Source: Candidatus Heimdallarchaeota archaeon
GTDB lineage: Archaea; Asgardarchaeota; Heimdallarchaeia; Heimdallarchaeales; Heimdallarchaeaceae
Assembly: GCA_030668825.1 (NCBI GenBank)
Contig: DAOVET010000059.1
Span: 1 to 14,936, forward strand
DNA length: 14,936 nucleotides
Direction: 5' to 3'
Part shown: positions 1 through 14,936 of the stretch, one piece after another
How the letters are laid out: the number at the start of each line of letters is the position of its first letter
Numbering within the stretch: position 1 is the first letter of the stretch
Notes under the pieces: model-generated
Told to the model about the DNA's origin: nothing
The model's input: the letters and a program-made list of their open reading frames with translations, nothing else
Databases searched by the model: none
Made by a program: the position numbers and the translations under genes

Positions 1-1
1 T

Positions 2-838
2 GCACAGCAATTTCGAACTATTTGGCAACAAGATCCAAGAAAGGAGAAGAACTATCCTGATATAGAGAGAAAATCTAACTTGGCACAATATCTTGATGAA
101 TTAATGATAATTGAAGAAAAAGAAGTTAAAGCTGCTTTAGAAAGCATAGGACTTAGTCCAGAACAGACCTCCAAGGTATATGATTTTACTTTAATCAAAG
201 GAATTCCTCAAGATGTTATTGTAGCTCTGAAATCTCTTGAAGTAGGTGATAGGGTTAAACTTGCCATAGAGAATATGGAAGAGTTACTAACCTATCTAGA
301 ATCTTTTGATGTTATTGAAAACTGTGAATTTGATATGTCAATAGCTCGGGGTTTGGACTACTACACTGGAGTTATTTTTGAGTTTTTAGACAGAACAGGT
401 TCAGTTGCTAGAGCAATCGCAGGAGGAGGAAGATATGATCAACTTGTTGAAAATTTTGGTGGTGGAAAAATCCCTGCAACAGGAATAGGAATGGGTGAAA
501 CGGTGCTTCATTCTATTTTGAAGAAATTAAACAGGTTTCCCTCCTACAAGCATCCCGCGGAGGTTTACGTTGCAGCTATTTCAGAAGATGTTATGACAGC
601 TGCTGCAAAAATTGCTCAAGATTTACGAAAAGACTTTTCGGTGATCTTCAATCCATTTGGGTGGAAACTTTCAAGACAACTGGAGGATGCTGGAAGCAGA
701 AATGTACCGAATATGATTATTGTAGGAAAGAGAGACATAAATGAAGATAAAGTCACTCTTAGAGATATGAAATCTGGAGAACAAATTACAGTTTTGATTT
801 CAAAATTAAAAGAGGAGTTAGACCTAAAAGTAAACTAA
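2..838 (+). CDS. hisS: Histidine--tRNA ligase, 5'-truncated by the window edge
   Basis: HisRS signatures RGLDYYTG (histidine-binding) and GGGRYD are present, followed by a C-terminal HGTP-type anticodon-binding domain (EVYVAAI...LSRQLEDA...MIIVGKRDINEDKVTLRDMKSGEQ). The frame is open from position 2 (AQQFRTIWQQDPRKEKNYPDIERKSNL), so the TTG at 80 is not the true start. Confidence 0.95.
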   Translation, partial: AQQFRTIWQQDPRKEKNYPDIERKSNLAQYLDELMIIEEKEVKAALESIGLSPEQTSKVYDFTLIKGIPQDVIVALKSLEVGDRVKLAIENMEELLTYLESFDVIENCEFDMSIARGLDYYTGVIFEFLDRTGSVARAIAGGGRYDQLVENFGGGKIPATGIGMGETVLHSILKKLNRFPSYKHPAEVYVAAISEDVMTAAAKIAQDLRKDFSVIFNPFGWKLSRQLEDAGSRNVPNMIIVGKRDINEDKVTLRDMKSGEQITVLISKLKEELDLKVN

Positions 839-890
839 TTTCTCACTTCATAATTTTTAAGCCTTCAAACAAAACAGATTTATTTATTTT

Positions 891-2498
891 ATGGAATTGC
901 TATCAATGACAGTTGGTCTTCATAATTATTTGAAAGGAATAAACCTCGATGAATTCGTTGTCAATGTAAAGGACAGGAGCAAATTTGAAAAAATTCTCAC
1001 CCATCTTGGGTTAGACTCTAACTTTTCATTAGAGAAGTTTGTTGAACATCTGTTATATGAGAGTAAATTATTCCTTAACAAAGAAAAACGCAAAGAAGCC
1101 TTGATTATATTAAAAGCTACTAAACCCTTGCTTAATCTAGTTCCAAAGTATTTGAGTGCTTTCTTTTATCTCACTTTAACTGATTCATTTCTTCTAGCTA
1201 ATGATTATGAAGGAGCAACAAAATCTGTTAATCGTGCAAATTCTATAGCTGAAGAACTGAATGATCCTAGGCTTATAGTAAGAGTTCTAAATCTCATGTT
1301 TGTTATTAATAGAACTGTTTTGAAGGACAAAGCTGTAGAATTTTTGCTTAAATCTAAGGAAATCTCTGAAAAGAATGAATTTTATGAAAACATAGTTTAT
1401 TGTGATGTTAATATTGGTTTGATGCACTTTTTCAAAAAAGAATACAGTAAATCTGCTGAATATTGCTCATATGTAATTGATCTCATTACAACAAAGAAAT
1501 ATCCTAATAATAAGTTGATTATGCCTGCTGATTATTTTCTTCAGATCTTTTCTGAAAGCCCAGAACTTGTTGCTAATCCTAAGAATCAAGATATGATTTT
1601 GAAAGGTGTCACTATTGTACTTAAAACTATAAAACAATTCAAATCAGATTATGAAGCAACCCGAAGACTTTCTATACTTGTAAGTTTTCTAAAACTTTCT
1701 GAAAACTTAGTTGAACGCTCTCTGAAAGAAATCGATTTGTTTATTGAGAATCTTCCCAAGGATAAAAAATCTCTTTATTACTATGGAATTGCAAATGGGA
1801 TAGCTAATTTCAAAGATTATAAGGTGTCACTAGTTTATTTCGAGAAAGCAATAAGTCAAATGAAAAATCTGAAAGATGAGGAACAAAGAAGAATAAAGAA
1901 AAATTATGCATATACTCTTTCTATTATCATGGGAACTTCAATGATTTACGATTTGGAGACTTCACCACAAACATCTCAAAGACTTAAAGGGTTAAGAATT
2001 AAAACAAATGAAGATAATCTCGCTGGGAAAAAAGGCAAGCAAATTAATTTTAGAAATTCAGTAAGTGATTCAGATGCGGTTTTTGGTGTAAAAAGAGATT
2101 TTTTGGAGAAAAAATTGCTCAACAGTATTAAGGATTATTACACACAACGAGAAATAGTTACAGGCTTTTCATATCAGAACAGTAGAGACGACATCTTGAA
2201 CCATTTGGAGATGTTTGCAATAAATGCACTAAACCAGAATGATGAATTATTATCACTTCTCTTAGTTGGTACAACACTTAGCGAAAAAGACTCAAAGAAG
2301 AAGAAGCGTACTTTTACAGGATACCAGATTCTAGGACATAGGGTACCTAAGTCAATATTAGATACAAAACACTTTGAAGAATTTGATATCAGATTCCTTT
2401 ATGATTTAGTCACTGCTCCTCAAAAGTTTAAACAAATTGAGATCATAACTCCACATGAATCTTTAGAAGCAGACTATAAGAGAATTTTAAGCAAATAG
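891..2498 (+). CDS. TPR-like helical repeat protein with an uncharacterised C-terminal alpha/beta region
   Basis: 535-aa ORF with TPR-like units (AFFYLTLTDSFLLANDYEGATKSVNRANSIAEELND; VYCDVNIGLMHFFKKEYSKSAEYC; LYYYGIANGIANFKDYKVSLVYFEKAI). The last ~185 aa are not recognised. A TATA-like TTTTTAAG lies at about 854-861. Confidence 0.7.
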   Translation: MELLSMTVGLHNYLKGINLDEFVVNVKDRSKFEKILTHLGLDSNFSLEKFVEHLLYESKLFLNKEKRKEALIILKATKPLLNLVPKYLSAFFYLTLTDSFLLANDYEGATKSVNRANSIAEELNDPRLIVRVLNLMFVINRTVLKDKAVEFLLKSKEISEKNEFYENIVYCDVNIGLMHFFKKEYSKSAEYCSYVIDLITTKKYPNNKLIMPADYFLQIFSESPELVANPKNQDMILKGVTIVLKTIKQFKSDYEATRRLSILVSFLKLSENLVERSLKEIDLFIENLPKDKKSLYYYGIANGIANFKDYKVSLVYFEKAISQMKNLKDEEQRRIKKNYAYTLSIIMGTSMIYDLETSPQTSQRLKGLRIKTNEDNLAGKKGKQINFRNSVSDSDAVFGVKRDFLEKKLLNSIKDYYTQREIVTGFSYQNSRDDILNHLEMFAINALNQNDELLSLLLVGTTLSEKDSKKKKRTFTGYQILGHRVPKSILDTKHFEEFDIRFLYDLVTAPQKFKQIEIITPHESLEADYKRILSK

Positions 2499-2501
2499 AA
2501 C

Positions 2502-3299
2502 TCAATTGAACATTGTAAGTATCGTTTGTTTGAGTTGATTTATTTTCTCAGTTGAATATTGAAAATTCTTCATTTCATCTATAGCTTTGAACATGTAGTC
2601 CTTAGCTTTTGATTTCTTGTCTAATTCAAAAAATACTCTCCCAATTAAAATAGATAATACGATTATTTGATCTTTGTCTTTTTGCTTCCTGAAGTGATTC
2701 AGAGCATTTTGGAAGACTTTTATAGATTCTTCATATTTAGTTTGGGATACTAATAAGTGACCCAAATCATTTTCTACTTCGGCTTTTTTATCAAATGCTT
2801 TAATCTTCTTATAAATCTCAATCGCCTTTTTGTAAGCATTAACGGCTCTTGCAGGATAAGCAGAATATTCAACTAAATCTGTTTGGTAAGTAAGAGCAAG
2901 TTCTTTCCAGGAATCACCAAGTTTTTCCAAATTGCTCAAATTAGTAAAAGTGTCTGTGGCTTTAGCTAAGTATTGCTTACTTTTTTTGAATTCCCCTTCT
3001 TCTCGGTAAATCACTCCTAGAAGAAGAGCGCATTCGCCTATTTTGGGTAAAAGATTTAATTCTTGGAATCTGCTAATAGCTAATGAATAAAATTGACGAG
3101 CTTGGGAAAACTGGTTTATGTTGTAGTAAGCGGTACCTAATAATAATAATGTCTCGGCGGATTGCCTTTTGTTACCAATTGAGGAAAAAATCTCTTGGGC
3201 ATAAATGAGGTCCTTAATACAGTTTTGAAAGTTTCCCTTTTGAAAATCTTTTTGTCCTCGAACAAAGAAATAAACAGCATTAGTCTCTTGATCTTTCAT
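2502..3299 (-). CDS. Tetratricopeptide repeat protein (about six ~40-aa repeats)
   Basis: Regular A/G-x3-L-G-x2-Y...A-x3-Y-x2-A pattern (AETLLLLGTAYYNINQFSQARQFYSLA; GECALLLGVIYREEGEFKKSKQYLAKA; AEVENDLGHLLVSQTKYEESIKVFQNA). An in-frame stop lies just upstream of the ATG and a GGGGT SD-like sequence precedes it. Confidence 0.85.
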   Translation of the reverse strand: MKDQETNAVYFFVRGQKDFQKGNFQNCIKDLIYAQEIFSSIGNKRQSAETLLLLGTAYYNINQFSQARQFYSLAISRFQELNLLPKIGECALLLGVIYREEGEFKKSKQYLAKATDTFTNLSNLEKLGDSWKELALTYQTDLVEYSAYPARAVNAYKKAIEIYKKIKAFDKKAEVENDLGHLLVSQTKYEESIKVFQNALNHFRKQKDKDQIIVLSILIGRVFFELDKKSKAKDYMFKAIDEMKNFQYSTEKINQLKQTILTMFN

Positions 3300-3385
3300 A
3301 ATGGGTACCCCTAGCCACTACACTAATTCTTCCTAAACAAGTACAACCTTCTTCTAATATATACTTTCTAATAGTTTTATCCGCA

Positions 3386-3416
3386 AATAAAAATAAGGGA
3401 AAAAAAGTGACAAAGA
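3386..3416 (-). terminator. Oligo-T tract downstream of the 585-aa gene (archaeal-type terminator candidate)
   Basis: The minus strand after the TAG reads TCTTTGTCACTTTTTTTCCCTTATTTTTATTT. Confidence 0.45.
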
Positions 3417-5174
3417 CTAACTCACAAAGAATAACGATTTTTCTTCAAAGCTTTTATTTACCTTATCCCAGTCAATTTCTCGAGCAAGTGTTCTCTTCCC
3501 TGAGTCGATTATATTATTGACTCTTCTAGCATGTAAAATTTCGTTTGCTTTCCTAATAAGTGATCTCCTTTGATAGCTTGGTTCAGGTCGTGCAACTGTC
3601 ATAGCAGTTTTTGCTTGTTTTTCAGCTAAGATACCAATTACCACCTTTTCTCCTTTGACGAACTCTACTAATCGAAAAACTTCAGGGTTCAACTTATTCT
3701 CAAAGAAAGCTTCTTCAGGAATTATTGATAGTGTCTTCTCACTATAACTAACCGATATAAACCGTTTGGCAAGTTCTAGGATACCAATCACTGGATCTAA
3801 GAATTCAGTAGGAAACTGAATAGGTGATTCAGAGTAGAAAACTGTTGGCTGGGTTTGTTTCTGTTCGGATTCAATCACACCACTAATAACAAAATCATCC
3901 TCTCTGAAGGAGTCGTAAACTTCTTCACCTATGCCAATACCAGAAACACTGGTTAAAATCATTTCATCTAGAATCAGTCGAGACCAAGCATCAATTGGTA
4001 TTGCTTTCTTAATTGTTGATTTCCTAATTTTAGGCTCCTTTTTCTTTTTGAAAACAGAGAGAAGTTTGCCAAAGAAACCTGTAGGCTTGGGTTGTTCTTC
4101 AATTTCAATTTTTTCTTCTATAATCTCTCTTTCTTCTTTAACTCGCTTGAAAACATCCATCTGAGGTAAATCTTTCTTGAATTTTTCAAACGCACCAATA
4201 TCTTCTAATTTTAGTTGTAGAAGGGCTTCAACTTCCTTGAGATTGATATCATCTAGAGGACTTAGTAATCCTATCCACCCTTCAGCTGTTGCAGTCTTAG
4301 CATGGACAACAAAAAGATTGATTTCTGATGTTATTGATTCTAGCTTATTTGTAAATCTGATATACTTTAGTATGTGAGGATAATCTCCACTCAACAGCTT
4401 TGTAGTATTCTTGAATTTCTTGGCAAATTGTGCAGTCTTAAGTACTGGAATAAGGGATTCAAATTTTTCACCTTTGGTTTCGCCATCTTGCCATCTGAAG
4501 TAATAAAACATTGTTGATTCTTTGAAATAAGGGATTGGAACAGCTGGATTTGGTTCTCCTTCTGTTTCAATCGCAAAATGTTTGGCAATAATCTGAGAGA
4601 TAATTCCTGTTTGTTGTGATTCCATAATATCTCGAAGATTCACCCATTTTTCCAAGGATTTTGAAAAAATAGATTGGCACAAAGCAGTTTCAATCAGGAA
4701 TGCAGCCCACCATGGTGGAATATATTTCATTTTTTCTCTTACAAATACCAAAAGATGTCTGGTATAATAATCTGAAACTAATGCAGCCGCTATATGTTTG
4801 GCAACTCCTCGATCAAGAAGATAGTAGAATCTCTTTCTCAATATAGAAGCAACTTTGAAAGAAAATGCTACAAGATGTGTTAATTCATACCATGAATCTT
4901 CCTTAGGTAATGACAATTTTTTCCAAAAATCAATAATTTCTTGCCTTCTTACAGAATCTTCTAGTTCAAACTTTACTTCAGAAGACATTATAATATAATC
5001 AGCAGTGTAAAGGGCAGAAAGAACGAGATTATTTGAGTTATCAAAATCTGCTTGGAATTCTTCTATGAGATCTTCACTCATTATTTTATAACGTTCAAAT
5101 AGAGGTTGAAGCTGATGAACCCTTTTCGCTTCTTGATATTCTTTCTCCAAAAATTGGTGAACTGCGTCTTTCAT
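3417..5174 (-). CDS. Hypothetical multi-domain protein: helical N-terminus, internal amphipathic/basic helix, putative longin-like C-terminal domain
   Basis: 585-aa uninterrupted ORF with an ATG start and a TATA-like element about 25 nt upstream. No enzyme motifs were recognised; the domain calls come from secondary-structure pattern only. Confidence 0.75.
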   Translation of the reverse strand: MKDAVHQFLEKEYQEAKRVHQLQPLFERYKIMSEDLIEEFQADFDNSNNLVLSALYTADYIIMSSEVKFELEDSVRRQEIIDFWKKLSLPKEDSWYELTHLVAFSFKVASILRKRFYYLLDRGVAKHIAAALVSDYYTRHLLVFVREKMKYIPPWWAAFLIETALCQSIFSKSLEKWVNLRDIMESQQTGIISQIIAKHFAIETEGEPNPAVPIPYFKESTMFYYFRWQDGETKGEKFESLIPVLKTAQFAKKFKNTTKLLSGDYPHILKYIRFTNKLESITSEINLFVVHAKTATAEGWIGLLSPLDDINLKEVEALLQLKLEDIGAFEKFKKDLPQMDVFKRVKEEREIIEEKIEIEEQPKPTGFFGKLLSVFKKKKEPKIRKSTIKKAIPIDAWSRLILDEMILTSVSGIGIGEEVYDSFREDDFVISGVIESEQKQTQPTVFYSESPIQFPTEFLDPVIGILELAKRFISVSYSEKTLSIIPEEAFFENKLNPEVFRLVEFVKGEKVVIGILAEKQAKTAMTVARPEPSYQRRSLIRKANEILHARRVNNIIDSGKRTLAREIDWDKVNKSFEEKSLFFVS

Positions 5175-5214
5175 TACGAATATGTTTACTAAAGATAAAT
5201 TAAATCTATCGCAA

Positions 5215-5230
5215 GGGAAAGTTTATTTTT
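5215..5230 (+). promoter_or_regulatory. BRE + TATA-like promoter for the putative sRNA
   Basis: Purine-rich GGGAAAG is followed by TTTATTTT (5222-5229), 22-29 nt upstream of the predicted RNA 5' end at 5251. This is the canonical archaeal spacing. Confidence 0.5.
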
Positions 5231-5250
5231 GGAAAAAAGAAGTTAATTTT

Positions 5251-5321
5251 GCGTAGATAGTGATGTAGGTTTTACCGTTGGAGCGAAAGCTATGAAAATA
5301 ACGGCACCTCTGAATCTGCGC
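5251..5321 (+). ncRNA. Box C/D-type small RNA (double kink-turn, dual guide architecture)
   Basis: Terminal stem GCGTAGAT(5251-58)/ATCTGCGC(5314-21); box C GTGATGT(5260-66); 12-nt spacer AGGTTTTACCGT; D' TGGA(5279-82); GC-GAAA-GC hairpin; C' ATGAAAA(5292-98); 11-nt spacer TAACGGCACCT; box D CTGA(5310-13). Both K-turns have the 3-nt bulge and tandem GA geometry. The element is a GC-richer island in an AT-rich spacer and is followed by TTTATTT. Confidence 0.75.
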
Positions 5322-5326
5322 TTTAT

Positions 5327-6721
5327 TTATATTTCCAGTCTTACTTGTTTATTTTGTCTATTCCAAAAGACTCTGTTACGATAACTTGGCTTTACCTTTA
5401 TTGGCATTTTTTCTATTTTTTTAGTCCACTCTTTGACTTTCTTTATGCTTTTAGCAAAAGCATCATTAGACACATTGGTCATTATCTTTAGTTCATCTGC
5501 AGTTGGTTTTCCTGAAACTGCCTTAATTATATCATCAGTTTTCTCGATAAATTCTTTCTCCAGCTTGTTTCTACCATCTTCAAAAACACTTAGTCTATGT
5601 TGATAATCTTGACTAACCAATCTTTGGAATTTCTCATTAAGCCACCAAAAACTATCTGGGTCGTAAAGAGCGGCTGATATTTTTAGTTTCTTCTTTAAGC
5701 CAGGTTTTGGAAGGAAAATAGGTTTAAAAGTACTGATACATGGAGCTGATGATCCTGTTACCCAATGAATTTGAATATCTTTTAGAATGTGAGATACGAG
5801 GGATCCTGTTGTTTGATCTGGAATAATTATTCCTGTTGCATGATGACACGGACTATTAGCTTTTGCTTTTGCTGGAGCCCATTTTTCCTCTTTCTCTGGT
5901 GTGACATTGTGATTTCTAAGAACGTCCATAACATCCTTGGGCGTGATTTTTCCTTTGTTTTTTAACATTAGTGTAGTGGTACACTGTTGTCTCTTAAATC
6001 CCTTAGTGAAATAATGTGACCTTTGTGAAGATTCTTTTATTACATGATAAATTCTGAATTTTGGAACAAAATCCTTTGCAAAATTAAATTCATCTTTTGA
6101 TTTACTATATCCTTTTTCGATTGAATGCTTTATGAGATCGTGATGAATTAGATCATAATTGTCTCCAATTGAAAAAGTGTTAGAAATTGTTCTAATATCT
6201 TTAACTTTTTCTGCAATCCAGTATTTGTCCGCTGTTTCTAGAACCCATGCTTCTTTTTGGTCTGCAATTATGAAGGAATTATGATAATCTCTACCTACAA
6301 CACCGTAAGAACACTGTCCGCCTTGTCCATATTCCCCTAGAAATGAAATTATGGTTTCAAGAGCTGTTTTAGCAGTTTTAGCTCTTTCTAAGGCAAGTCT
6401 TATTAAATCCATACCCAGTAATCCAGTATCTCTAATTGGTTCTTTACTCCAGACAGCTTCATTTCCTATAGTTAAACCATGTTCATTTGCTCCCATCTCA
6501 CATCCAAACATCCAGAAAGGTTTCATAAGGAGAACATCATATGTTTGTTCGACTTGGGGAATTGAAATATGAGTACATTTCACTTTAGAATTTTTCGAAT
6601 GCTTTTTTCCAGGAATGTATTCTATATTATGGGCTTCATTTGCAACTCGATTAGAGTTCTTACCTAGTATAACACTCCCATCTTTTGTTGAATTACCAAC
6701 AGCAACAACAGTATCACACAT
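5327..6721 (-). CDS. Secernin-like C69 family peptidase (Ntn-hydrolase)
   Basis: Starts M-CDTVVA, placing the catalytic Cys at the N-terminus, so the ATG at 6721 is preferred over the TTG at 6742. Motifs GKNSNR, GCEMGANEHGLTIGNEAVW, LLGMDLIRLALERA, YGQGG, YHNSFIIAD and QTTGSLVS. A BRE/TATA-like GAAAACTTTTTTATTA lies 25-35 nt upstream. Confidence 0.92.
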   Translation of the reverse strand: MCDTVVAVGNSTKDGSVILGKNSNRVANEAHNIEYIPGKKHSKNSKVKCTHISIPQVEQTYDVLLMKPFWMFGCEMGANEHGLTIGNEAVWSKEPIRDTGLLGMDLIRLALERAKTAKTALETIISFLGEYGQGGQCSYGVVGRDYHNSFIIADQKEAWVLETADKYWIAEKVKDIRTISNTFSIGDNYDLIHHDLIKHSIEKGYSKSKDEFNFAKDFVPKFRIYHVIKESSQRSHYFTKGFKRQQCTTTLMLKNKGKITPKDVMDVLRNHNVTPEKEEKWAPAKAKANSPCHHATGIIIPDQTTGSLVSHILKDIQIHWVTGSSAPCISTFKPIFLPKPGLKKKLKISAALYDPDSFWWLNEKFQRLVSQDYQHRLSVFEDGRNKLEKEFIEKTDDIIKAVSGKPTADELKIMTNVSNDAFAKSIKKVKEWTKKIEKMPIKVKPSYRNRVFWNRQNKQVRLEI

Positions 6722-6769
6722 TATAACGAATATTAAAAACAAGTAATAAAAAAAGTTTTCACCGATTCT

Positions 6770-8107
6770 TTAGAATCGATGAATTAAATTAGCAATCGTT
6801 TTCATTCCAATAACAAAATCCTCTATGAATATATTCTCATTGGGAGCATGAGCATTTGCATTTGCATGCCCACAACCTATTGATATGCAGGGAACTCCTT
6901 CGAACAAGTACATTGGACCAGATCCTCCAACCATCGGCCAAATGACTGGTTCATGATTCTCAACATCTTTAATTGTATCAACAACTTGCTTGGCAAAAGA
7001 ATCATTGATAGATGTTTGGGCAGCTTGATAGCCATCCCAGCTAGTGATTTCAATATGTTGAAAACCATTATCGTTCCAGAATTTACGAATCTTCTCAACC
7101 AAATCTTTTGCATCTTGTCCAGGAACAAGTCTAAAGTCAACTTTAGCAAAAGCTTCATTTGGAGTGACAGTTTTTCCACCCGGACCCTGATATCCGCTCC
7201 ATAAACCACAAATGTTGCATGTAGGCTCTAAGAAATATTTTTTCTTCAAGTCCAAACCAGTAAGATTCAAACGAAAGCTGTCTATGCCAAAATTTTCCTT
7301 GAATAAGTTTTCCTTCAAATTAAAATCTTCTATAATTTTCATATCTTCAGGTGAGGGTTCAGGGATATTATCGTAGAAACCAGGGACTAGAATTCTATCA
7401 TTTCTGTCTTTCAGTGAAGCTAAAGCCCAACTCATTTCATAAGCAGCATTGTTAACAAATTGTGTATAACCACTGTGGACATCTCTTCCGATAGTATTAG
7501 TTTTCAAATGAAGATAAAGGATACCTTTGACACCCAAATAAACCTCTTGGATGCCATCTCCATCTCTACCTCCAAATTCCCAAATACAACCATCTGCATC
7601 AGTAATGAATTCTTTATTGTTTTTTACAAATTCTTCTAAATTGGGAGAACCAACTTCCTCTTCTCCTTCAATAACAAACTTGACATTAACGGGAAGTTTC
7701 CTAAAAACTTCATTATACGCCTTTATTGCTTGAAGTCTGCAAATTATCTCTCCTTTGTTATCTGAAACACCTCTAGCAAATATTTTTCCTTCTCTAATGG
7801 TTGGTTCAAAAGGAGGAGAATCCCATAAATCTATTGGGTCTTCTGGTTGAACATCATAGTGATCGTAGAATAGAAGGGTTTTGTCTGCTCCAACGTTCAT
7901 CTCTGCACAGAAAACAGGATTGCCAGAAGTTTCTGCTAGAAAATATGTAAATCCAGCTTCTTCAAAATGCTTTGATAGAAACTCAATAGCTTCTGGTCCA
8001 CCAGTTTTTTTAGCAGCAATACTAGGTATTTTAAGTAGTTCACACAAAAGGTCGACTGAAGCATCTTTATTTTGTTCTATTATTTGATAAACATCTTCTA
8101 ATGTCAT
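6770..8107 (-). CDS. M20 family metallopeptidase (ArgE/DapE/CNDP2-like dipeptidase)
   Basis: All metal-ligand motifs are intact: YDHYDVQP, ARGVSDNKG, IEGEEEVGS, CIWE, DVHSG and AHAPNENI. Confidence 0.93.
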   Translation of the reverse strand: MTLEDVYQIIEQNKDASVDLLCELLKIPSIAAKKTGGPEAIEFLSKHFEEAGFTYFLAETSGNPVFCAEMNVGADKTLLFYDHYDVQPEDPIDLWDSPPFEPTIREGKIFARGVSDNKGEIICRLQAIKAYNEVFRKLPVNVKFVIEGEEEVGSPNLEEFVKNNKEFITDADGCIWEFGGRDGDGIQEVYLGVKGILYLHLKTNTIGRDVHSGYTQFVNNAAYEMSWALASLKDRNDRILVPGFYDNIPEPSPEDMKIIEDFNLKENLFKENFGIDSFRLNLTGLDLKKKYFLEPTCNICGLWSGYQGPGGKTVTPNEAFAKVDFRLVPGQDAKDLVEKIRKFWNDNGFQHIEITSWDGYQAAQTSINDSFAKQVVDTIKDVENHEPVIWPMVGGSGPMYLFEGVPCISIGCGHANANAHAPNENIFIEDFVIGMKTIANLIHRF

Positions 8108-8182
8108 ATCTCTCTTGTTTTAATAGAAAATTTAATCTTTAAGACTTTCTCAATAACTTAATATCAGAAAGAAAAGAAGAAT

Positions 8183-9148
8183 CTAAAGTTTGAGTAATTC
8201 CTCATAGATTCCTTTAACTAATCCTAAAATGAGATTTAAATCAGCTGATTTAGTAAGGCCAAATTCTATGTTTTTCTTTTCGATTTTCAAGTAATCCATT
8301 GATTCATGGATTTTAGATAATTTCTCTTCTAACATTAATACTTTCTTAAAAAAATTCCAATCAGCTGAAGTATCACTGTTAAAGACATATTCTCCCTTAT
8401 CACTTGCCTTATCTTTATGGAGAGAAAGTGTAAAGGGTTGTTTTCTCTTTAATATGCCATTAAAACTTAAGATTTCTTCCTTATCCAATTGAACAATAAT
8501 GCCTATAATGAAACTGTAATCGCTTTTATCAGGAAAATTGAATGAAAAGTTTGGTCCAGAATCATCAAAGTAAAACTGCGAATTTTCTGTTTCTAGTAGT
8601 AATAGATTCCCTCTTAATTTTTCCATTATCATTAGTTCTTCTTCTTCAAGAATCTGTTTCATACTAATCATTTTATCCTCAGAACCACCAATTATTGATT
8701 CTTTCATTTTATAATCCCGAAGTTTCTTATTCCCATGAATTGCAAAAGAATATTCGTCTTTAGAACTTATTTTTCCATAAAAAATACCCTTATCTACTCG
8801 TTGCCCATGAAGCCATTCTTGTTGTGAAACAATTCTCGGCTTTCCTGGAACTCTATCTAATCTAGCTTGTCTAGACATTTTTCGATCTGAAATTTCAGGT
8901 ATACCTTTTCTAAATGCCGCTCGTTCTTCTATTGATTTTTCTTGGTTTTTTCCATGAATAGTACGTCGTGTAAGATACAACAATATAGGTAAGGCTATTA
9001 TCGTAATTGGTATCGCAATCAGAAATTGTTGAGGGGTATTAAATGTAAAAACAAATATCAAAACAGCTATAATAAAAAGTAGAATTGCTATAATTTCTAG
9101 ATATCTTTTCCTGATTAATTCTGAATATTGAAAGTCCCCACTCTTCAT
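8183..9148 (-). CDS. Hypothetical membrane protein with two N-terminal TM helices and a large soluble C-terminal domain
   Basis: Hydrophobic segments IIAILLFIIAVLIFVFTF and FLIAIPITIIALPILLYL are flanked by basic residues (RKR before, RRT after). By the positive-inside rule, both termini are cytoplasmic. Confidence 0.8.
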   Translation of the reverse strand: MKSGDFQYSELIRKRYLEIIAILLFIIAVLIFVFTFNTPQQFLIAIPITIIALPILLYLTRRTIHGKNQEKSIEERAAFRKGIPEISDRKMSRQARLDRVPGKPRIVSQQEWLHGQRVDKGIFYGKISSKDEYSFAIHGNKKLRDYKMKESIIGGSEDKMISMKQILEEEELMIMEKLRGNLLLLETENSQFYFDDSGPNFSFNFPDKSDYSFIIGIIVQLDKEEILSFNGILKRKQPFTLSLHKDKASDKGEYVFNSDTSADWNFFKKVLMLEEKLSKIHESMDYLKIEKKNIEFGLTKSADLNLILGLVKGIYEELLKL

Positions 9149-9196
9149 TCTTAAGCTATAATGTAAGCATTCTTCTATATATAATCTCTCATTAAA

Positions 9197-9336
9197 ATGA
9201 GCTCTAGTGCAACAGAAGATGAAAAGTTTAAGAATTACATTCTCTTAATTTACTCATGATAAGAATGTCAGTTGGTTTAGAAGATATCGACGATTTAATA
9301 AAGGATGTAGACCAAGCTCTCTCAAGAATACGATGA
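9197..9336 (+). pseudogene. Remnant of a Cys/Met metabolism PLP-dependent enzyme gene (cystathionine gamma-synthase/lyase or methionine gamma-lyase family)
   Basis: 9256-9336 translates to MIRMSVGLEDIDDLIKDVDQALSRIR*, matching the family C-terminal hallmark IRLSVGLEDxxDLxxDLxQAL. An in-frame stop at 9229 precludes a full gene. An out-of-frame 20-codon ORF (9197-9259, MSSSATEDEKFKNYILLIYS*) precedes it. Confidence 0.75.
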
Positions 9337-9365
9337 AAAATTGGAAAAAAGGGAGGGGAAAGAAT
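9337..9365 (-). terminator. Pyrimidine/T-rich tract downstream of tbp
   Basis: The minus strand after the TAA reads ATTCTTTCCCCTCCCTTTTTTCCAATTTT. Confidence 0.45.
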
Positions 9366-9980
9366 TTAGAAATCAAAAGCGTTGATTTCATCTAAAGTAA
9401 TGTAAGTATTTTCAACAGCTTGGCGAACTTGCGCTTCAGTCTTTGCACCAGTACAAACGAGGTTTCCAGATTGGAATAAGAGAAGAACAGTTTTGGGCTC
9501 TGCAAGTCTGTAAATTAAACCGGGAAATTGTTCAGGTTCATACATGGAGTGTTCTAACCACAATGCTGCTAATTCTAAGTTTATTGTTCTATGATTAAAA
9601 TGACCAGATGCTACAATATTTTGAACTATTATTTCTGGTTCTTCATCTATCTTTGTTCCTACAGTTCTTAGGATTTTGGTCATTTGTACAACTCCCTCAT
9701 GAACCATCTCAGTGGATTTAGCACCAGTTAAAACTAGTTTTCCAGAGCTGAAAACAAGACTTGAAATCTTTGGTTTCTTTATTTTTAATATTAGACCTGG
9801 GAAGGTTTCTGGATTATAACTAACAAATAAATCGTCATCATCAATGAGAGTTTGATAAGCAGTAACTAAATCAATTGTTGTAAAAAGATTGATACTTGCT
9901 ACAACGTTTTGGATTACTATACCATAATCTATTCCTTTTGGTGTCATTTTATCCCATCTATCCTTTATATATTGAGGCAA
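9366..9980 (-). CDS. tbp: TATA-box-binding protein
   Basis: Two TBP repeats: QNVVAS...YNPETFPGLILK...LVFSSGKLVLTGAKS and QNIVAS...YEPEQFPGLIYR...LLFQSGNLVCTGAKT. The start is ambiguous between TTG 9980 and ATG 9947; the latter gives a more typical N-terminal length. Confidence 0.97.
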   Translation of the reverse strand: MPQYIKDRWDKMTPKGIDYGIVIQNVVASINLFTTIDLVTAYQTLIDDDDLFVSYNPETFPGLILKIKKPKISSLVFSSGKLVLTGAKSTEMVHEGVVQMTKILRTVGTKIDEEPEIIVQNIVASGHFNHRTINLELAALWLEHSMYEPEQFPGLIYRLAEPKTVLLLFQSGNLVCTGAKTEAQVRQAVENTYITLDEINAFDF

Positions 9981-9992
9981 CTAAATAACATC

Positions 9993-10099
9993 TATTTAAA
10001 AAGTTTTTTATCTCAAGTTTATTGAAATCGTTCTCTGTTGCATCTAGATGACTTTTACGCGCCTTTCTGATATAGACCATGTTTTATTGAGTATTTAAA
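9993..10099 (-). promoter_or_regulatory. tbp upstream region with two identical TATA boxes
   Basis: TTTAAATA occurs on the minus strand at 10099-10092 and at 10000-9993. Confidence 0.5.
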
Positions 10100-10111
10100 G
10101 GGAGATTTCAA

Positions 10112-10903
10112 CTAATCTTTACAATCACACTTAATATCCAGTATTTTTTGTGCAATAATATTCTTCATTATTTCTTTGATTGTGTCTGTTTTTTCCTTAA
10201 AAATTCTTACAACTTCTTCATGTGTAATTTTTTCTTGCATTCCTGCACCATAATTTGTGATCAAACATAATGTTGTATAACACATTTTTAGCTCTCTGGC
10301 TAGAATAGCTTCAGGAATAGTAGTCATCCCTACTACAGTTCCTCCCATCTTTTGGTACATGATTATTTCAGCTGGTGTTTCAAATCTTGGTCCATCGGCA
10401 CAAACATGAACTCCCTTTGTGTGCACCATCCCACCTATTTCTTCTACAGCCCTTATGTATTGTGTTCTCAATTTTGGACAATAAGGATTTGTATAATCTA
10501 GATGTACAACACCTTGTCTAGAGGTTCCATCACTAAAGTTGATTTTTGTTTGACCATCATAATATGTTAGTGGTCTATGTTTGGTCATATCAATTATCTG
10601 ATCAGGAATAACAAAATCTCCAGGATTAATGCTTGTATCTATTGAACCTACAGCATTAGTAGCAAAAATTCTAGAAACTCCTAATTCATATAGAGCATAA
10701 AGGTTTGCTCTATAATTAATTAAGTGGGGTGGGACTGAATGTTTAGGTCCATGTCTAGGTAGGAAAAATATTTCTTGATCTTTATGTTTGACTTTAGTTA
10801 TATTATCTACTTTACCATAAGGAGTTTTCATAGAAACTTTTTTGGCTTTCTTGAATAAACCATAGACTCCTGACCCGCCTATAATTGCTATTTTGTCTTG
10901 CAT
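10112..10903 (-). CDS. mtnP: MTAP-family purine nucleoside phosphorylase, probably methylthioinosine/6-oxopurine specific
   Basis: Motifs IAIIGGSG, FLPRHG, NYRANL, NAVGS, DGPRFETPAE, VGMT and EAILAREL are present. The base-specificity motif is ITNYG rather than TDYD, and there is a C-terminal CxC. A likely own promoter (CCGAAAAA...TTTTAAG) lies 21-38 nt upstream. Confidence 0.92.
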   Translation of the reverse strand: MQDKIAIIGGSGVYGLFKKAKKVSMKTPYGKVDNITKVKHKDQEIFFLPRHGPKHSVPPHLINYRANLYALYELGVSRIFATNAVGSIDTSINPGDFVIPDQIIDMTKHRPLTYYDGQTKINFSDGTSRQGVVHLDYTNPYCPKLRTQYIRAVEEIGGMVHTKGVHVCADGPRFETPAEIIMYQKMGGTVVGMTTIPEAILARELKMCYTTLCLITNYGAGMQEKITHEEVVRIFKEKTDTIKEIMKNIIAQKILDIKCDCKD

Positions 10904-10945
10904 TAACTATAAATGTAATTTAACTTAAAAGAATTTTTCGGATGA

Positions 10946-10962
10946 AATCCCATCAAGGGATT
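10946..10962 (-). terminator. Short hairpin directly after the bax1 stop codon
   Basis: AATCCC-N5-GGGATT forms a perfect 6-bp stem abutting the TAG at 10965-10963. Confidence 0.3.
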
Positions 10963-12684
10963 CTAAATCAAAGAAATTTCAACTTCATCAATTGATTTCC
11001 ATTTAACAGTACAACCTATATGCTGACAAATTGCTATTAAAGCTTCTTTGAAATCAGGGAATTGGTCTTTTAAAGCCAAAAGAGATGACTTACCGATAGA
11101 TTTCATATGCTTCCGAACAGTCTCAAAAACTTCAGAGTGAACCAATCCATAACTTGTTAAAAATGTCAAGTTAAATTCTTTTAATATTTTATCTACCTCT
11201 GAGGAAGAGAGTATCTTGGTTGTTTCATCTGTTGAATAAGAATTGAATCTTGTATCCAAATCATTGAGAGCTATACTTTTTTTACTCTTGTCTAGTTCCC
11301 TTCCTACTTCTATTATTATCGCTTGAAAAACAGGAAGTCTCTCTTCAAAATCTGAATAATGTTGTTCTAATAGTTGACTTAATTCATTGTTCGGTATCCT
11401 TGTTCCAGTGTAGAATATGTGATTGATTTTTCTCTTTTCTGTGAAATGGGGTTTAAGATTTTCATCAATTACATAGATGATATGAATGTCTACTTTATCT
11501 AACTCCTCCATCTGTTTTTTCTTCTTCAAGATGTATTTTGTTGTATAGAAACCAACAATCTCTAAATAAAGTGTTTTTTCCCCTCGCTGTAAAAGAAAAT
11601 CTGGGACATACATTTTTTTTCCAATAATTATAGCTTCAGGTTCAGGAATTGCCTTCCAACCATGATAATTTCTCCAAGATTTCAAGAATTGATTTTCTAC
11701 TTTAGAATCTATTTCCGGTCTGAAATTGATTCCATCATCTTCATCTGCTTTAAAGGTAGGAAGCAGTGGTAATTCAGGTGAGTTAAGTGAAAACTTTGCC
11801 TTTCTGTTTCTTGGTTTAACAATAGCATTAATTTGGAAATCTATTTCTTCTCGCAATAGAACTCGTAGAATATATGTAGCGACGTTAGCAATGTTCTTCC
11901 CCCATCCTCCCTGCTCAGTATAAAGTTCTAAAGGGGGATGAATTGTAATTCTGTAGCCATCTTCTTCAAGAATTATGTCAGTAAATACATAATTCTTCTT
12001 TGAGAGATAGATGACTTTTTTTGCTAGATATCCTGGTAATTTTTTTATTCGCATTTGAAAATCTATTGAAAAACACAAGATAGTTTCAATCGTGTCATAA
12101 TTTAAATATCTTATTAGCTGTAAAGGATCTATATTTTCATTTTTCAGAAGCACTCTTTCTGAATCTATATCTCTATACAGAAGTTTGTCAAGAGAAAAGG
12201 CAGGAATTCCCAACTCCTGTTCAATTTTGCTAACTATTTCCTCTCTTAATTCATTTGTAACAAAACTATTTTGTTTCCTAGCAACATTTTCATATACTTT
12301 GGATCGAAACTGAGCTGGAGTCATACTAGAAATGGCGTTTTTATTAGAAACACTATCGGCAATAAAAGAGGTGATGTCACTACCAGTCTTCTTAGGTTCT
12401 TTTGTTTTTCTAACTCCTATAATTTCGTCTGTTGATTTAGAAGAATAAGAATAAAACCTCGCAGAAGATGCATTTAGAGATTTGATTATTTTATATGACG
12501 GAAAAAGATCTTCAATAATTTCGAATAATACTTCTGATTTCTTTCTTCCTAAGTTTTTTTCAAGAAATTGAATATAACCAAGAACCTTGTTTCGTTCTTC
12601 TGCTTGTAAGAAAATTGGAACAAACACTGTATTGTTTCCAGTTCCTCTTATTTCATATTCCAAATCAGATAAAGCTATTCTCAT
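10963..12684 (-). CDS. bax1: Bax1 / DUF790 family PD-(D/E)xK endonuclease, partner of XPB
   Basis: DSKVENQF...W...PEPE...YVPDFLL...LYLEIVGFYTTKYILKK matches the DUF790 nuclease core. The gene is translationally coupled to xpb through a TAATG overlap at 12686-12682. Confidence 0.9.
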   Translation of the reverse strand: MRIALSDLEYEIRGTGNNTVFVPIFLQAEERNKVLGYIQFLEKNLGRKKSEVLFEIIEDLFPSYKIIKSLNASSARFYSYSSKSTDEIIGVRKTKEPKKTGSDITSFIADSVSNKNAISSMTPAQFRSKVYENVARKQNSFVTNELREEIVSKIEQELGIPAFSLDKLLYRDIDSERVLLKNENIDPLQLIRYLNYDTIETILCFSIDFQMRIKKLPGYLAKKVIYLSKKNYVFTDIILEEDGYRITIHPPLELYTEQGGWGKNIANVATYILRVLLREEIDFQINAIVKPRNRKAKFSLNSPELPLLPTFKADEDDGINFRPEIDSKVENQFLKSWRNYHGWKAIPEPEAIIIGKKMYVPDFLLQRGEKTLYLEIVGFYTTKYILKKKKQMEELDKVDIHIIYVIDENLKPHFTEKRKINHIFYTGTRIPNNELSQLLEQHYSDFEERLPVFQAIIIEVGRELDKSKKSIALNDLDTRFNSYSTDETTKILSSSEVDKILKEFNLTFLTSYGLVHSEVFETVRKHMKSIGKSSLLALKDQFPDFKEALIAICQHIGCTVKWKSIDEVEISLI

Positions 12685-14087
12685 TAGATCACATCACTTT
12701 GTTTTCTTCTTCTGACTGTTCCAGTCTCAAGACTTTCTGGTGTAACAAGCTCATAGAGGATAGCTTTTCCTTCCTTTGGTCGTAGAATTCTTCCTAATCT
12801 TTGAATAAATTGCCTTGCTTGTCCTGTTCCACTTACTATTATTCCAACATTTACATTTCCACAATCCCACCCCTCATCAAGAACTTTACCAGTAACTATC
12901 TTAGAGTAAGTTCCTCTGCTAAATTTTTGTAGTATATCACTGCGTTCAGCACTCTTTGTTTCATGGGTGATTGCTGGAATTAAATGCCTTCTACTAATAT
13001 CATATACCATATCATTAAACTCTGAAAAAATAATAATATGGTCCTCTTGGTGTTTTACCAGAATTTCTTCGATTTTACTCAGTTTTGCTTTTGATGAAAA
13101 AACAAGATTCCTTGCCATGCGATGAGCATCTAAAGCTTCTTTTGCTTCATGGTCTTGATTTACTCTGAAAATGAGATATCTTTCATAATCTTCAGGAGTT
13201 CTGATTTGAATGTTCCTTTTTCGGAGATAATCTCTATATGTTGCCATGAGCTTATTATAGGTTTCTCGTTCTTCTTTATCTAAAGGCACTTTTATAGTCA
13301 TTTGTTCATATTCTGCTACATATCCTTTTTTTGAAAGATCTGAAACACTAGCAACCTTAATTGGACTCCCAATTAATTTGTATAGACGTTCTTCTCCTCT
13401 ATCAGATCGATCTGGTGTTGCGGTTAGTCCCAAACGATAAGCTGAAGGTAAGCCTTTAAGCACTTTGAGTGTTTCTTTTGATCCTGCATGATGTGCTTCA
13501 TCTAGAATGATAAAATTGAAATTTTTTCTTAGCAAATTAATATTTAATCTTGCACTATCATAAGTTGTTACTGTTATCTCTTTAATCTCTCTTATCTGGT
13601 CTCCAAGTTGACCAATCATGTCATGAGTAAGAGAAGAATATTTCTTCAAGTGCTCTATCCATTGGTAGAGCAAGTTTTTGGTTGGAACAACAATAATCGT
13701 TTTTTGTTTTAGCTTTTCAATAGCTTTTAATCCAATGATGGTTTTCCCTGCTGCAGTTGGTAAAATGACGATGCCTTTTCCATCATTTTGTAGAAATTCA
13801 TCCAAAGCTTGTTCTTGATATTCTCTTAACTCCAGTTTCACTTTGAATTTACCTTGGTAAACTTGAGATAAGCTTGTATCTTGTAAGATGGATGAATTAA
13901 TCTTAATATTCTTTTTTTCTAGAATTTGAATGATTTTGAAATAATTTATTGGTAATGCCCTGTATTCCTTTTCTTTCTTTGGATTAGCTTTTAGGTAGGT
14001 TAATAATTCTCTATCCTCTATTTTTTGATTTGATTCTAGAATAAGATCAAAAGCTACTCTAAAGAATATCTTAACTTCTGTAGGCAT
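12684..14087 (-). CDS. xpb: XPB/Rad25-type SF2 DNA helicase
   Basis: Q-motif LREYQ, motif I LPTAAGKT, Ia VVPT, II DEAHH, III LGLTATP followed by the RED-motif equivalent RSD, V VLDEGWD and VI QRLGRILR. The N-terminal YRALPINYFKII resembles the XPB damage-recognition domain. The gene is adjacent to bax1. Confidence 0.93.
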   Translation of the reverse strand: MPTEVKIFFRVAFDLILESNQKIEDRELLTYLKANPKKEKEYRALPINYFKIIQILEKKNIKINSSILQDTSLSQVYQGKFKVKLELREYQEQALDEFLQNDGKGIVILPTAAGKTIIGLKAIEKLKQKTIIVVPTKNLLYQWIEHLKKYSSLTHDMIGQLGDQIREIKEITVTTYDSARLNINLLRKNFNFIILDEAHHAGSKETLKVLKGLPSAYRLGLTATPDRSDRGEERLYKLIGSPIKVASVSDLSKKGYVAEYEQMTIKVPLDKEERETYNKLMATYRDYLRKRNIQIRTPEDYERYLIFRVNQDHEAKEALDAHRMARNLVFSSKAKLSKIEEILVKHQEDHIIIFSEFNDMVYDISRRHLIPAITHETKSAERSDILQKFSRGTYSKIVTGKVLDEGWDCGNVNVGIIVSGTGQARQFIQRLGRILRPKEGKAILYELVTPESLETGTVRRRKQSDVI

Positions 14088-14094
14088 TATTCTT

Positions 14095-14128
14095 CCTCCA
14101 GTTTAAATACTAGTTTTAAATATAAAAA
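14095..14128 (-). promoter_or_regulatory. Shine-Dalgarno (GGAGG, 14099-14095) and TATA-like element for the xpb-bax1 operon
   Basis: The minus strand reads TTTTTATATTTAAAACTAGTATTTAAACTGGAGGAAGAATA-ATG, with GGAGG 7 nt from the ATG. Confidence 0.55.
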
Positions 14129-14159
14129 GACTGCTTAATTAAAGAGTCTGAACACTTGA

Positions 14160-14184
14160 GTAAAAAGAAAAATAAAAAGAGAAG
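14160..14184 (-). terminator. Oligo-T tract after the last gene
   Basis: The minus strand after the TAG reads CTTCTCTTTTTATTTTTCTTTTTAC. Confidence 0.5.
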
Positions 14185-14934
14185 CTAAATTGAGAGCTTC
14201 CTTGGGTTGAGATAGAGATTTGTTTCACTATCATCAAGTTTTACTTCAGTGTCTGAAATTTTCAATTCTTTAAGTGACTTCTTAATGTTCTTTTTTATAT
14301 TCCTATAGAATCTAAGAGTTGAACTGAATAGTATTAATATATTAAAGAAAGTTTTATCTTTAGCTAATTTCTCTTCGAAAATATCGATTTTAAATCTTCC
14401 ACCAATATTCAAAAACTTTCCATTTATTTTTGCTATAACTTTGTTGTGGATGTTTTTGATTACCCAATCAGATCCAAATTTAAGTCTTTTATCGTCAATG
14501 ACAAATGACCGGAATACATCGTTTTCATCTAAATAACTGAAACCAAAGATTTGACCTTGAAAACGTGGAAAATGAGATAGCCTTCGAATTCTATACAAGT
14601 TACGTGTATGCTTGAAAATACAAACATAAGCTGGACATGGTTCTTTAGTAGCATGAGAATTAGCAAAACTCTCACCTTGTAATCTTTCAATGCTCGCTCG
14701 CCAATAACCACTTGGAGAAAAGAGTTTCATAACAAATCTTCTCTCGAGAGGATCTTTTCCTTTCCAAAGACCTTCCCTGATTGCAAGCAGACCATAATCT
14801 TTTCCATCAACTTTTACAGTTCCAATTGCATCCATATCTCTAGTCCATTGCCTATCTTTTTGAGCTCTTTGAGCATCTAGTCTGATACCCCACTCTTCTT
14901 TATGCATTTTTGTGCGCCATAAATCTACATCGAT
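14185..14934 (-). CDS. Hypothetical protein with a Tubby C-terminal-like (LURP-one/scramblase) beta-barrel; probably 5'-truncated
   Basis: The frame stays open to the window edge (IDVDLWRTK-MHKEEW). The protein is beta-strand-rich and ends DWVIKNIHNKVIAKINGKFLNIGGRFKIDI...TFFNILILFSSTL, i.e. final barrel strands plus the hydrophobic central helix typical of this fold. Confidence 0.6.
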   Translation of the reverse strand: MDVDLWRTKMHKEEWGIRLDAQRAQKDRQWTRDMDAIGTVKVDGKDYGLLAIREGLWKGKDPLERRFVMKLFSPSGYWRASIERLQGESFANSHATKEPCPAYVCIFKHTRNLYRIRRLSHFPRFQGQIFGFSYLDENDVFRSFVIDDKRLKFGSDWVIKNIHNKVIAKINGKFLNIGGRFKIDIFEEKLAKDKTFFNILILFSSTLRFYRNIKKNIKKSLKELKISDTEVKLDDSETNLYLNPRKLSI

Positions 14935-14936
14935 AT

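Follow-up and report, generated by a model that had tools for sequence, protein, structure and literature searches.

We report here a predicted box C/D small RNA (sRNA) in a 14,936-nucleotide (nt) stretch of DNA from Candidatus Heimdallarchaeota archaeon (assembly GCA_030668825.1, contig DAOVET010000059.1, positions 1 to 14,936 of the forward strand; hereafter the window). Positions 5251-5321 of its plus strand very probably represent a genuine box C/D sRNA gene, as judged from the sequence. The fuller reading, which we regard as likely with somewhat less assurance, is that of a 71-nt sRNA that would have its own TATA promoter, a D' guide that would direct 2'-O-methylation to the equivalent of Escherichia coli U531 (Um531) in the small-subunit (SSU) ribosomal RNA (rRNA), and a D guide that would have an accessory role on helix 18 of the same rRNA. 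In the mechanism proposed, the sRNA would be transcribed from that promoter, L7Ae would bind two kink-turns (K-turns), the terminal one of the C/D boxes and the internal one of C'/D', on both of which Nop5 and fibrillarin would assemble, as is expected of this class of RNA. The D' guide would pair in helix 18 with the 530 loop, on its 3' side, by which the uridine directly 3' of the decoding G530, namely U531, would be set opposite the fifth guide nucleotide for methylation, and the D guide would pair weakly (6-7 base pairs (bp), rich in G+C) with the 5' strand of helix 18, probably acting as a clamp or folding aid.

All the sequence elements of such an RNA are present on the plus strand. The predicted mature sRNA (5251..5321), which scored 95.8 bits with the covariance model R1 described below, is closed by a terminal stem of 8 bp including one U-G pair, in which the 5' strand GCGUAGAU (5251..5258) pairs with the 3' strand AUCUGCGC (5314..5321). 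The stem is followed by a 3-nt bulge (A5259/G5260/U5261) and then by the pairs G5262.A5313, A5263.G5312, U5264.U5311, and G5265-C5310, a predicted arrangement that is the standard C/D K-turn register. The C box is GUGAUGU (5260..5266), with a UGAUG core that is invariant in the genus, and it is separated by the 12-nt D' guide AGGUUUUACCGU (5267..5278), complementary to the 530 loop of SSU rRNA, from a D' box UGGA (5279..5282). The latter is a degenerate form of CUGA, in which GA is invariant and the first two bases vary among the homologues (UGGA, UUGA, UCGA, CUGA, and AUGA). An internal hairpin of the form GC-GAAA-GC (5283..5290), the loop of which varies in both sequence and length, provides the canonical stem of the C'/D' K-turn, and the C' box UAUGAAA (5291..5297) supplies its 3-nt bulge, UAU, followed by G.A and A.G pairs. 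The D guide AUAACGGCACCU (5298..5309), a second 12-nt spacer and one without a canonical target, leads to the D box CUGA (5310..5313). Both guide spacers, of 12 nt each, agree with the length of about 12 nt in archaeal box C/D sRNAs. The D box is invariant in the genus. The homologue of genome G043 (L076, G043:C100:4969-5049) has CUUA at this position, which would break the terminal K-turn and could reflect either an error of sequencing or decay of the copy.

Upstream of the RNA, a TATA box TTTATTTTT (5222..5230) has its centre some 25 nt away from 5251, where the stem starts, and the usual position of the archaeal TATA box is about -26. A purine-rich element, GGGAAAG (5215..5221), lies directly upstream of it, is partly kept in the genus alignment, and may represent a B recognition element (BRE). 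A TATA-like block is found at a constant distance of 20 nt from the stem across the genus, and also at 20 nt in G041 and at 18 nt in G044. Downstream of the RNA, the T-rich tail TTTATTTATATTT (5322..5334) is a possible terminator. The earlier note on this DNA, made from the sequence alone, had described this architecture, and its account of the four boxes, the GNRA hairpin, the 8-bp stem with one G-U pair, the K-turn geometry at both ends, the BRE and TATA box at the right distance, the T-rich tail, and the orientation opposite to the flanking genes was confirmed at each point. Its spacer lengths were borne out for the 12 nt between the C and D' boxes and were revised for the C' and D boxes, where it had given 11 nt in place of the present 12 nt owing to a different C' boundary.

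To the sequence elements can be added their conservation among relatives. In a DNA search of 40 relatives, comprising 24 genomes of the same genus and 16 from other families of the order, the element was present in 23 of the 24 and in none of the 16. A genus alignment of 27 rows was made with 26 loci fetched from the 23 genomes. The block GGTTTTACCGT was found in 26 of the 27 rows and in all six genomes of the family's other genera, and the D' guide core GGUUUUACCG was invariant, whereas the loop between the D' and C' boxes varied. The exceptional row is a second, hybrid copy in G013 (G013:C117:15374-15456; L021:166-250), located about 2 kb downstream of the full copy. The 3' half of this hybrid and its flank are about 97% identical to the window, with the canonical D guide kept, and its 5' half is unrelated, the terminal stem being absent and the spacer, of about 16 nt, being a different one; the copy may have arisen by a genuine rearrangement or be a chimera of the assembly.

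Both stems were also supported by covariation. The model R1 was built from alignment A1, which consists of 23 full-length sequences, and a search with it detected the element in 23 of the 24 genus genomes and in all six that represent four further genera of the family, with no match in the 16 from the order's other families. In A1, 91.6% of the cells of the stems were paired, as compared with at most 48.0% when the 3' partner was slid, and compensatory changes on both sides were found for five of the 12 stem pairs. The terminal stem was paired in 97.7% of cells across 22 distinct sequences, with two compensated pairs (for example, one that is G-C in 11 and A-U in 10), and in the internal hairpin three of the four pairs had changed on both sides, pair 39-54 being C-G in 16 sequences and U-A in 6. 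The observed percentage of paired cells, the number of double-change cells, and the covariation score were not reached by any of 500 shuffles. Covariation in related genomes, which the earlier note had named as a check, was thus found in both stems, together with conserved boxes.

The conservation extends beyond the family. Alignment A2 and the model R2 include the six genomes from the family's other genera, and positions 5268-5278 of the D' guide are invariant in the 27 sequences of A2. Outside the genus, the C box is AUGACGA, AUGAAGA, or AUGAUGA. With R2, weak matches were also obtained in a different family of the class, namely in 19 of 22 genomes of its genus g14, and 15 of the 17 g14 loci fetched have the complete layout and the identical D' guide core. 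In the 5' part of this layout, a C box AUGACGA or AUGAUGA is followed by CGGUUUUACCGN, a D' box CUGA (or CCGA/CAGA), and a covarying hairpin; in the 3' part, a canonical C' box AUGAUGA is followed by GAACUGGCAA and a D box CUGA (or CCGA). A pattern search for a C box followed by GGTTTTACCG, that is, TTTTACCG preceded by GG, also found 19 of the 22 g14 genomes, and it gave nothing convincing in the order's other families. R2 was also applied to 151 genomes drawn from the phylum, of which 123 lie outside the class. Matches with E of 0.5 or less were given by six of the 123, and none of their seven loci, all of which were fetched, carried the guide or the layout; this absence is weak evidence because R2 depends on the guide sequence. 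Among the loci inspected, L110 of g14 (G063:C65:554-711, minus strand) has the permuted order of C'-like box, D guide, CUGA, C-like box, D' guide, and CUGA within a short fetched stretch, which suggests a tandem or permuted arrangement. One of the seven loci from outside the class, L114 (G146:C42:5433-5510) of another Asgard archaeon, is an unrelated C/D-like RNA that has the same general architecture and different guides, arranged as AUGAUGA, 12 nt, CUAA, hairpin, UAUGAAG, 11 nt, and CUGA.

The target of the D' guide was sought in rRNA. Since the assembly holds only a partial SSU rRNA and is without large-subunit (LSU) rRNA, the rRNAs of relatives were used as well. In the archaeon's own SSU rRNA, the guide AGGUUUUACCGU pairs with GCGGUAAAACCA (G000:C25:12229-12240, where G000 is the host genome) through 10 Watson-Crick pairs and one G-U pair in a contiguous duplex of -17.1 kcal/mol. 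This site, covering G527-C537, falls in the 530 loop of helix 18, and it was the best SSU match also in G005, G041, G043, G044, G045, and G046, with the duplex reaching 12 bp in G045 and G046, the guides of which start with U. In helix 18, CUGGUGCCAGCCGCCGCGGUAAAACCAGC is common to the nine SSU sequences that were read from the two families, and G030, from one of the order's other families, has a different helix 18 sequence. The guide complements and the fifth-nucleotide rule had been read correctly in the earlier note. Its proposal that the D' guide addresses the 690 loop was not upheld, because the corresponding match, GCGGUGAAAUGC at position 628 of the G005 SSU rRNA, which we take to be the 690 loop, is only second best, with 7 Watson-Crick and three G-U pairs as against 10 and one at the 530 loop. 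Its second proposal, a D target near position 850, found no GGUGCCGUA-type site in any SSU rRNA examined. The search of both guides against rRNA and transfer RNA (tRNA) that it had recommended thus succeeded for the D' guide, for which a canonical site was found, and failed for the D guide. Among the 30 tRNAs predicted by ARAGORN, only matches rich in G-U pairs were found for the D' guide. Large insertions were noted in the rRNA genes of the relatives (L037, L084-L087, and L113): LSU genes span 3.37-4.14 kb as compared with a model of 2987 positions, and the SSU gene of G065 spans 2225 nt as compared with 1478. In G005 and G041, a single contig carries the SSU and LSU genes in divergent orientation, and in G045, the genome of which is complete, about 74 kb separate the two.

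The fifth nucleotide of the D' guide is A, which forms a Watson-Crick pair with the U located just after GCGG. Dennis et al align G507, A512, and G491 with E. coli G530, A535, and G515, respectively, in the part of the publication available (PMC4644070), and with this numbering offset the target uridine corresponds to E. coli U531. Yeast G577 is given as the equivalent of E. coli G530 in the available part of another report (PMC4896748), so that the target also equals yeast U578. In the accessible text of two further sources, yeast Um578 is placed in helix 18, is said to be guided by snR77, and is equated with human Um627 and Arabidopsis Um580 (PMC2794176; PMC3511168). On the basis of this complementarity, it is likely that a ribonucleoprotein (RNP) with the D' guide would direct 2'-O-methylation at the U531 equivalent (G000:C25:12233).

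There are, on the other side, a number of observations that speak against the interpretation given here. With respect to the RNA as a whole, the minimum free energy (MFE) fold of -18.8 kcal/mol has a z-score of -0.87, and 36 of 200 shuffled sequences folded equally well, which is not significant. No Rfam family matched at the gathering score; in a sub-threshold scan of window positions 5100-5450 up to E 10, which gave seven matches, the best were eukaryotic C/D families, namely SNORD58 (17.7 bits and E 0.37 for a threshold of 42) and snoZ196 (17.0 bits). Among the 23 listed sequencing runs with the locus, none is on record as RNA. Two measures of covariation did not exceed those of the shuffles, since the number of double-change pairs was equalled in 154 of 500 and that of further pair types in 459 of 500. 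One genome of the same genus, G004, which is 88% complete, is without the element. With respect to the boxes, the C box ends in U, not in the A of the consensus RUGAUGA; the D' and C' boxes are degenerate in the window sRNA, being canonical (CUGA and AUGAUGA) in g14; and in part of the genus the C' box is AAUGUAA or AAUGUGA, which would make the second sheared pair U.G. With respect to the D' guide, the rRNA in the assembly is confined to SSU positions 4-705, with the LSU absent, and in a shuffle test against the G005 SSU and LSU rRNAs 18 of 1000 shuffled guides equalled the observed one, a result that is moderate only and gains weight because the guide is invariant. With respect to the D guide, no target of at least 9 bp for AUAACGGCACCU was found in the SSU rRNA, in the LSU rRNAs of relatives, or in the 30 tRNAs, where matches were of at most 7 bp; its best rRNA matches are of 7-8 bp, which were equalled by 653 of 1000 shuffles.

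The observations on the RNA as a whole could be accommodated if there were no RNA gene at the locus and the conservation reflected a promoter and terminator shared by the two neighbouring genes. The region does hold the promoter of a divergent gene and does abut the stop codon of a convergent one, and the insignificant z-score and the lack of RNA among the recorded runs are what this explanation would expect. It is, however, very improbable, because it accounts neither for compensatory changes in two separate stems, nor for boxes and 12-nt spacers that are kept across two families despite different flanks, nor for an invariant 11-nt block that is exactly complementary to rRNA. Moreover, a scan of the whole 2.76-Mb genome for the strict box C/D layout gave three sites, as compared with none in the reversed genome; from this result, together with the conservation and covarying stems in relatives, the element is more than a chance arrangement. 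The host genome also encodes the proteins with which such an RNA would operate: the genes for fibrillarin (PF01269, 301 bits) and Nop5 (PF01798, 230 bits) are adjacent on contig C45, and two genes of the L7Ae family (PF01248, 89 and 57 bits) are present. Taken together, the conservation, the stem covariation, the invariant guides, and the RNP protein genes bear out the earlier note in its assignment of the RNA to the archaeal box C/D sRNAs with a promoter of its own.

The role of the D guide needs to be considered separately. Its segment GGCACC pairs with GGUGCC in the 5' strand of helix 18 (G514-C519; G000:C25:12216-12221) over 6 bp with -12.9 kcal/mol, at a site 7 nt upstream of the D' target. 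Six genomes of the genus have an A adjacent to box D, by which a seventh pair is gained. In the family's other genera, the guide has the form AACUGGCAC-N and pairs with G515-G521 over 7 bp, with one G-U pair in G044, and in g14 the guide GAACUGGCAA pairs with U516-G521. Complementarity to the 5' strand of helix 18 is thus kept in both, and the base selected opposite the fifth nucleotide would be G517 in this genus, C518 in the family's other genera, and C519 in g14, a shift that also counts against a site-specific function. A guide for methylation at one site should not slide between lineages, and the pairing is hence better regarded as accessory; the D guide is probably an accessory clamp or folding aid on helix 18, not a precise second methylation guide.

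We consider it unlikely that the RNA is a true double methylation guide, with the D' guide directed to U531 and the D guide to G517 (G000:C25:12219) in the 5' strand of helix 18. The proximity and free energy of the GGCACC pairing and its persistence in the other genera are in line with this explanation, and Dennis et al, in the text accessible to us, use relaxed pairing criteria for double guides and report helix 18 as a site of D'/D pairs (PMC4644070). The pairing of only 6-7 bp is, however, below the 9-bp criterion given in the same text, the base predicted to be modified differs by lineage, the conserved AA/AAC located 5' of the pairing core remains unpaired, and matches of such strength occur at chance level across the whole rRNA. 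Less probable still is a canonical target of the D guide, one complementary to AACGGCACC, that would lie in an RNA outside the present data, such as the archaeon's own LSU rRNA, an expansion segment, or another noncoding or messenger RNA (mRNA). The own LSU is indeed absent from the assembly, and, of the 26 genus rows spanning this stretch, 24 have AACGGCACC, including the three bases left unpaired with helix 18; the other two rows, G012 and G013a, have AAAGGCACC. The G013 hybrid copy keeps the canonical D guide as well, with AAAGGCACC in the full copy. On the other hand, no such site was found in the complete LSU of G005 or the partial LSU of G001, the sole perfect 12-nt complement of the guide in the 2.76-Mb genome is its own antisense strand, and two further genomic matches, which involve G-U pairs, look like chance. 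The target would furthermore have to change together with the guide in the other genera of the family, which carry AACUGGCAC.

Specific alternative sites were rejected. LSU position 41 (GGGUGCCGAUGA) pairs over 8 bp in G005, is also present in G044, and is absent in other genera, and it was put down to chance. The SSU sequence GCCGGUU, located about 54 nt downstream, pairs with guide positions 4-12 in some genera, leaves positions 1-3 unpaired, and misfits the guide of this genus. The two guides are also partly complementary to each other (CCGUU with AACGG and AGGU with ACCU), and these pairings dominate the MFE fold. A functional intramolecular pairing between them was rejected, as G012 and G013a have changed on the D side alone with no compensation; the complementarity follows from the fact that the guides match opposite strands of helix 18. 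The preferred interpretation of the D guide thus continues to be that of a probable accessory element.

The host assembly, designated G000, comprises 2.76 Mb in 138 contigs with 33% G+C, and the window is its contig C17. The sRNA, on the plus strand, is sandwiched between two minus-strand open reading frames (ORFs), 3417..5174 and 5327..6742. The latter encodes 471 amino acids and was identified as a peptidase C69 protein by a Pfam search, and the former, which encodes 585 amino acids, had no Pfam matches. A putative TATA-like element of the divergent 585-amino-acid gene, TTTAATTT, lies on the minus strand at 5197..5204, and the block AAATTAAAYYTATCGCAA (5197-5214), which is strongly kept across the genus alignment, places this box about 26 nt before the ATG at 5174. 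This spacing suggests that the mRNA of this gene may be leaderless and transcribed divergently from the sRNA. At the other end, the T-rich run located 3' of the terminal stem takes in the stop codon (5327-5329) with which the convergent gene for peptidase C69 ends. Elsewhere in the genome, outside the window, a second box C/D sRNA candidate was observed on the minus strand at G000:C14:20044-20091. It is compact and fully canonical, with the layout AUGAUGU, 12 nt, CUGA, UCA, UUGAUGA, 11 nt, and CUGA between GCC/GGC ends, and its guides match the G005 SSU rRNA with 11 Watson-Crick bp at 1355 (D') and 9 Watson-Crick bp at 1428 (D).

In comparison with known systems, the window sRNA shares with archaeal box C/D sRNAs in general the four boxes, the 12-nt spacers, the short terminal stem, the predicted promoter of its own, a guide to rRNA, and the fifth-nucleotide rule. 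It differs from them in its length of 71 nt, which exceeds the compact form, in a structured D'-C' hairpin of 8 nt (up to 18 nt in homologues), in its degenerate C' and D' boxes, and in having one guide without a canonical target. Judged by its sequence features, it is an RNA of ordinary kind, in a lineage that has received little study. No published account of Asgard C/D sRNAs was found, subscription journals being outside the scope of the search, and the part of PMC8339473 available appears to be without them. Box C/D guides are thus hardly documented in Asgard archaea, and the present one is conserved across two Heimdallarchaeial families.

The closest described RNAs, as far as the predicted arrangement is concerned, are the crenarchaeal double guides of helix 18, such as Sac sR115. 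According to the accessible text of Dennis et al (PMC4644070), Sac sR115, Pca sR28, Tte sR114, and Iho sR21 are double guides in which the D' guide is directed to 16S A512 (E. coli A535) and the D guide to 16S G491 (E. coli G515) in helix 18, and the choice between common descent and convergence among them was left undecided by the authors. The division of sites predicted for the window sRNA, with the 3' side of the 530 loop falling to the D' guide and the 5' strand of helix 18 to the D guide, is found in them too. When Sac sR115, as printed in supplement file 1, was compared by eye, its D' box was likewise of the UUGA type and its C' box of the AUGAAA type. Unlike here, the registers are those of A535 and G515, as compared with U531 and, weakly, G517, and the D guides listed in the accessible text meet the 9-bp criterion except for Iho sR21, whereas that of the window falls short of it. 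The term "U508", which would denote E. coli U531, did not occur in the three supplementary files of PMC4644070 that were searched as text, and U531 was hence apparently not predicted in the seven species of Dennis et al. The family described here may offer a natural example in which the pairing register of a second guide drifts while that of the first guide stays fixed.

The same uridine is, according to the accessible sources, the predicted target of the eukaryotic guides snR77 of yeast (RF01181), HBII-135/SNORD65 of humans (RF00571), and AtsnoR77Y of Arabidopsis, which form clan CL00057. The eukaryotic RNAs differ in being nucleolar small nucleolar RNAs (snoRNAs) that work with the Nop56/Nop58 paralogues, and RF00571 and RF01181 were not among the matches to E 10 on window positions 5100-5450. 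Any similarity of the guides is uninformative on descent because it is forced by the shared target. In the part of their study available, Hoeppner and Poole examined this clan among the families considered for ancestry in the last eukaryotic common ancestor, found that the positions addressed by archaeal guides are equivalent to those of ancestral eukaryotic ones in only a few cases, and judged homology to be unprovable (PMC3511168). It is a speculative and rather unlikely possibility that the window sRNA and this clan descend from a common ancestral guide and that the D guide would be a non-methylating, sliding clamp that holds helix 18 open during assembly. If this were the case, RNA-guided ribose methylation next to the decoding G530 would already have been present in a Heimdall-type ancestor of eukaryotes, and the D clamp would be an archaeal forerunner of the "extra base-pairing" of eukaryotic snoRNAs. 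The predicted target is a decoding-loop uridine that is methylated in yeast, plants, and humans, and the window sRNA should provide a testable additional equivalence between archaeal and eukaryotic guides in the lineage closest to eukaryotes.

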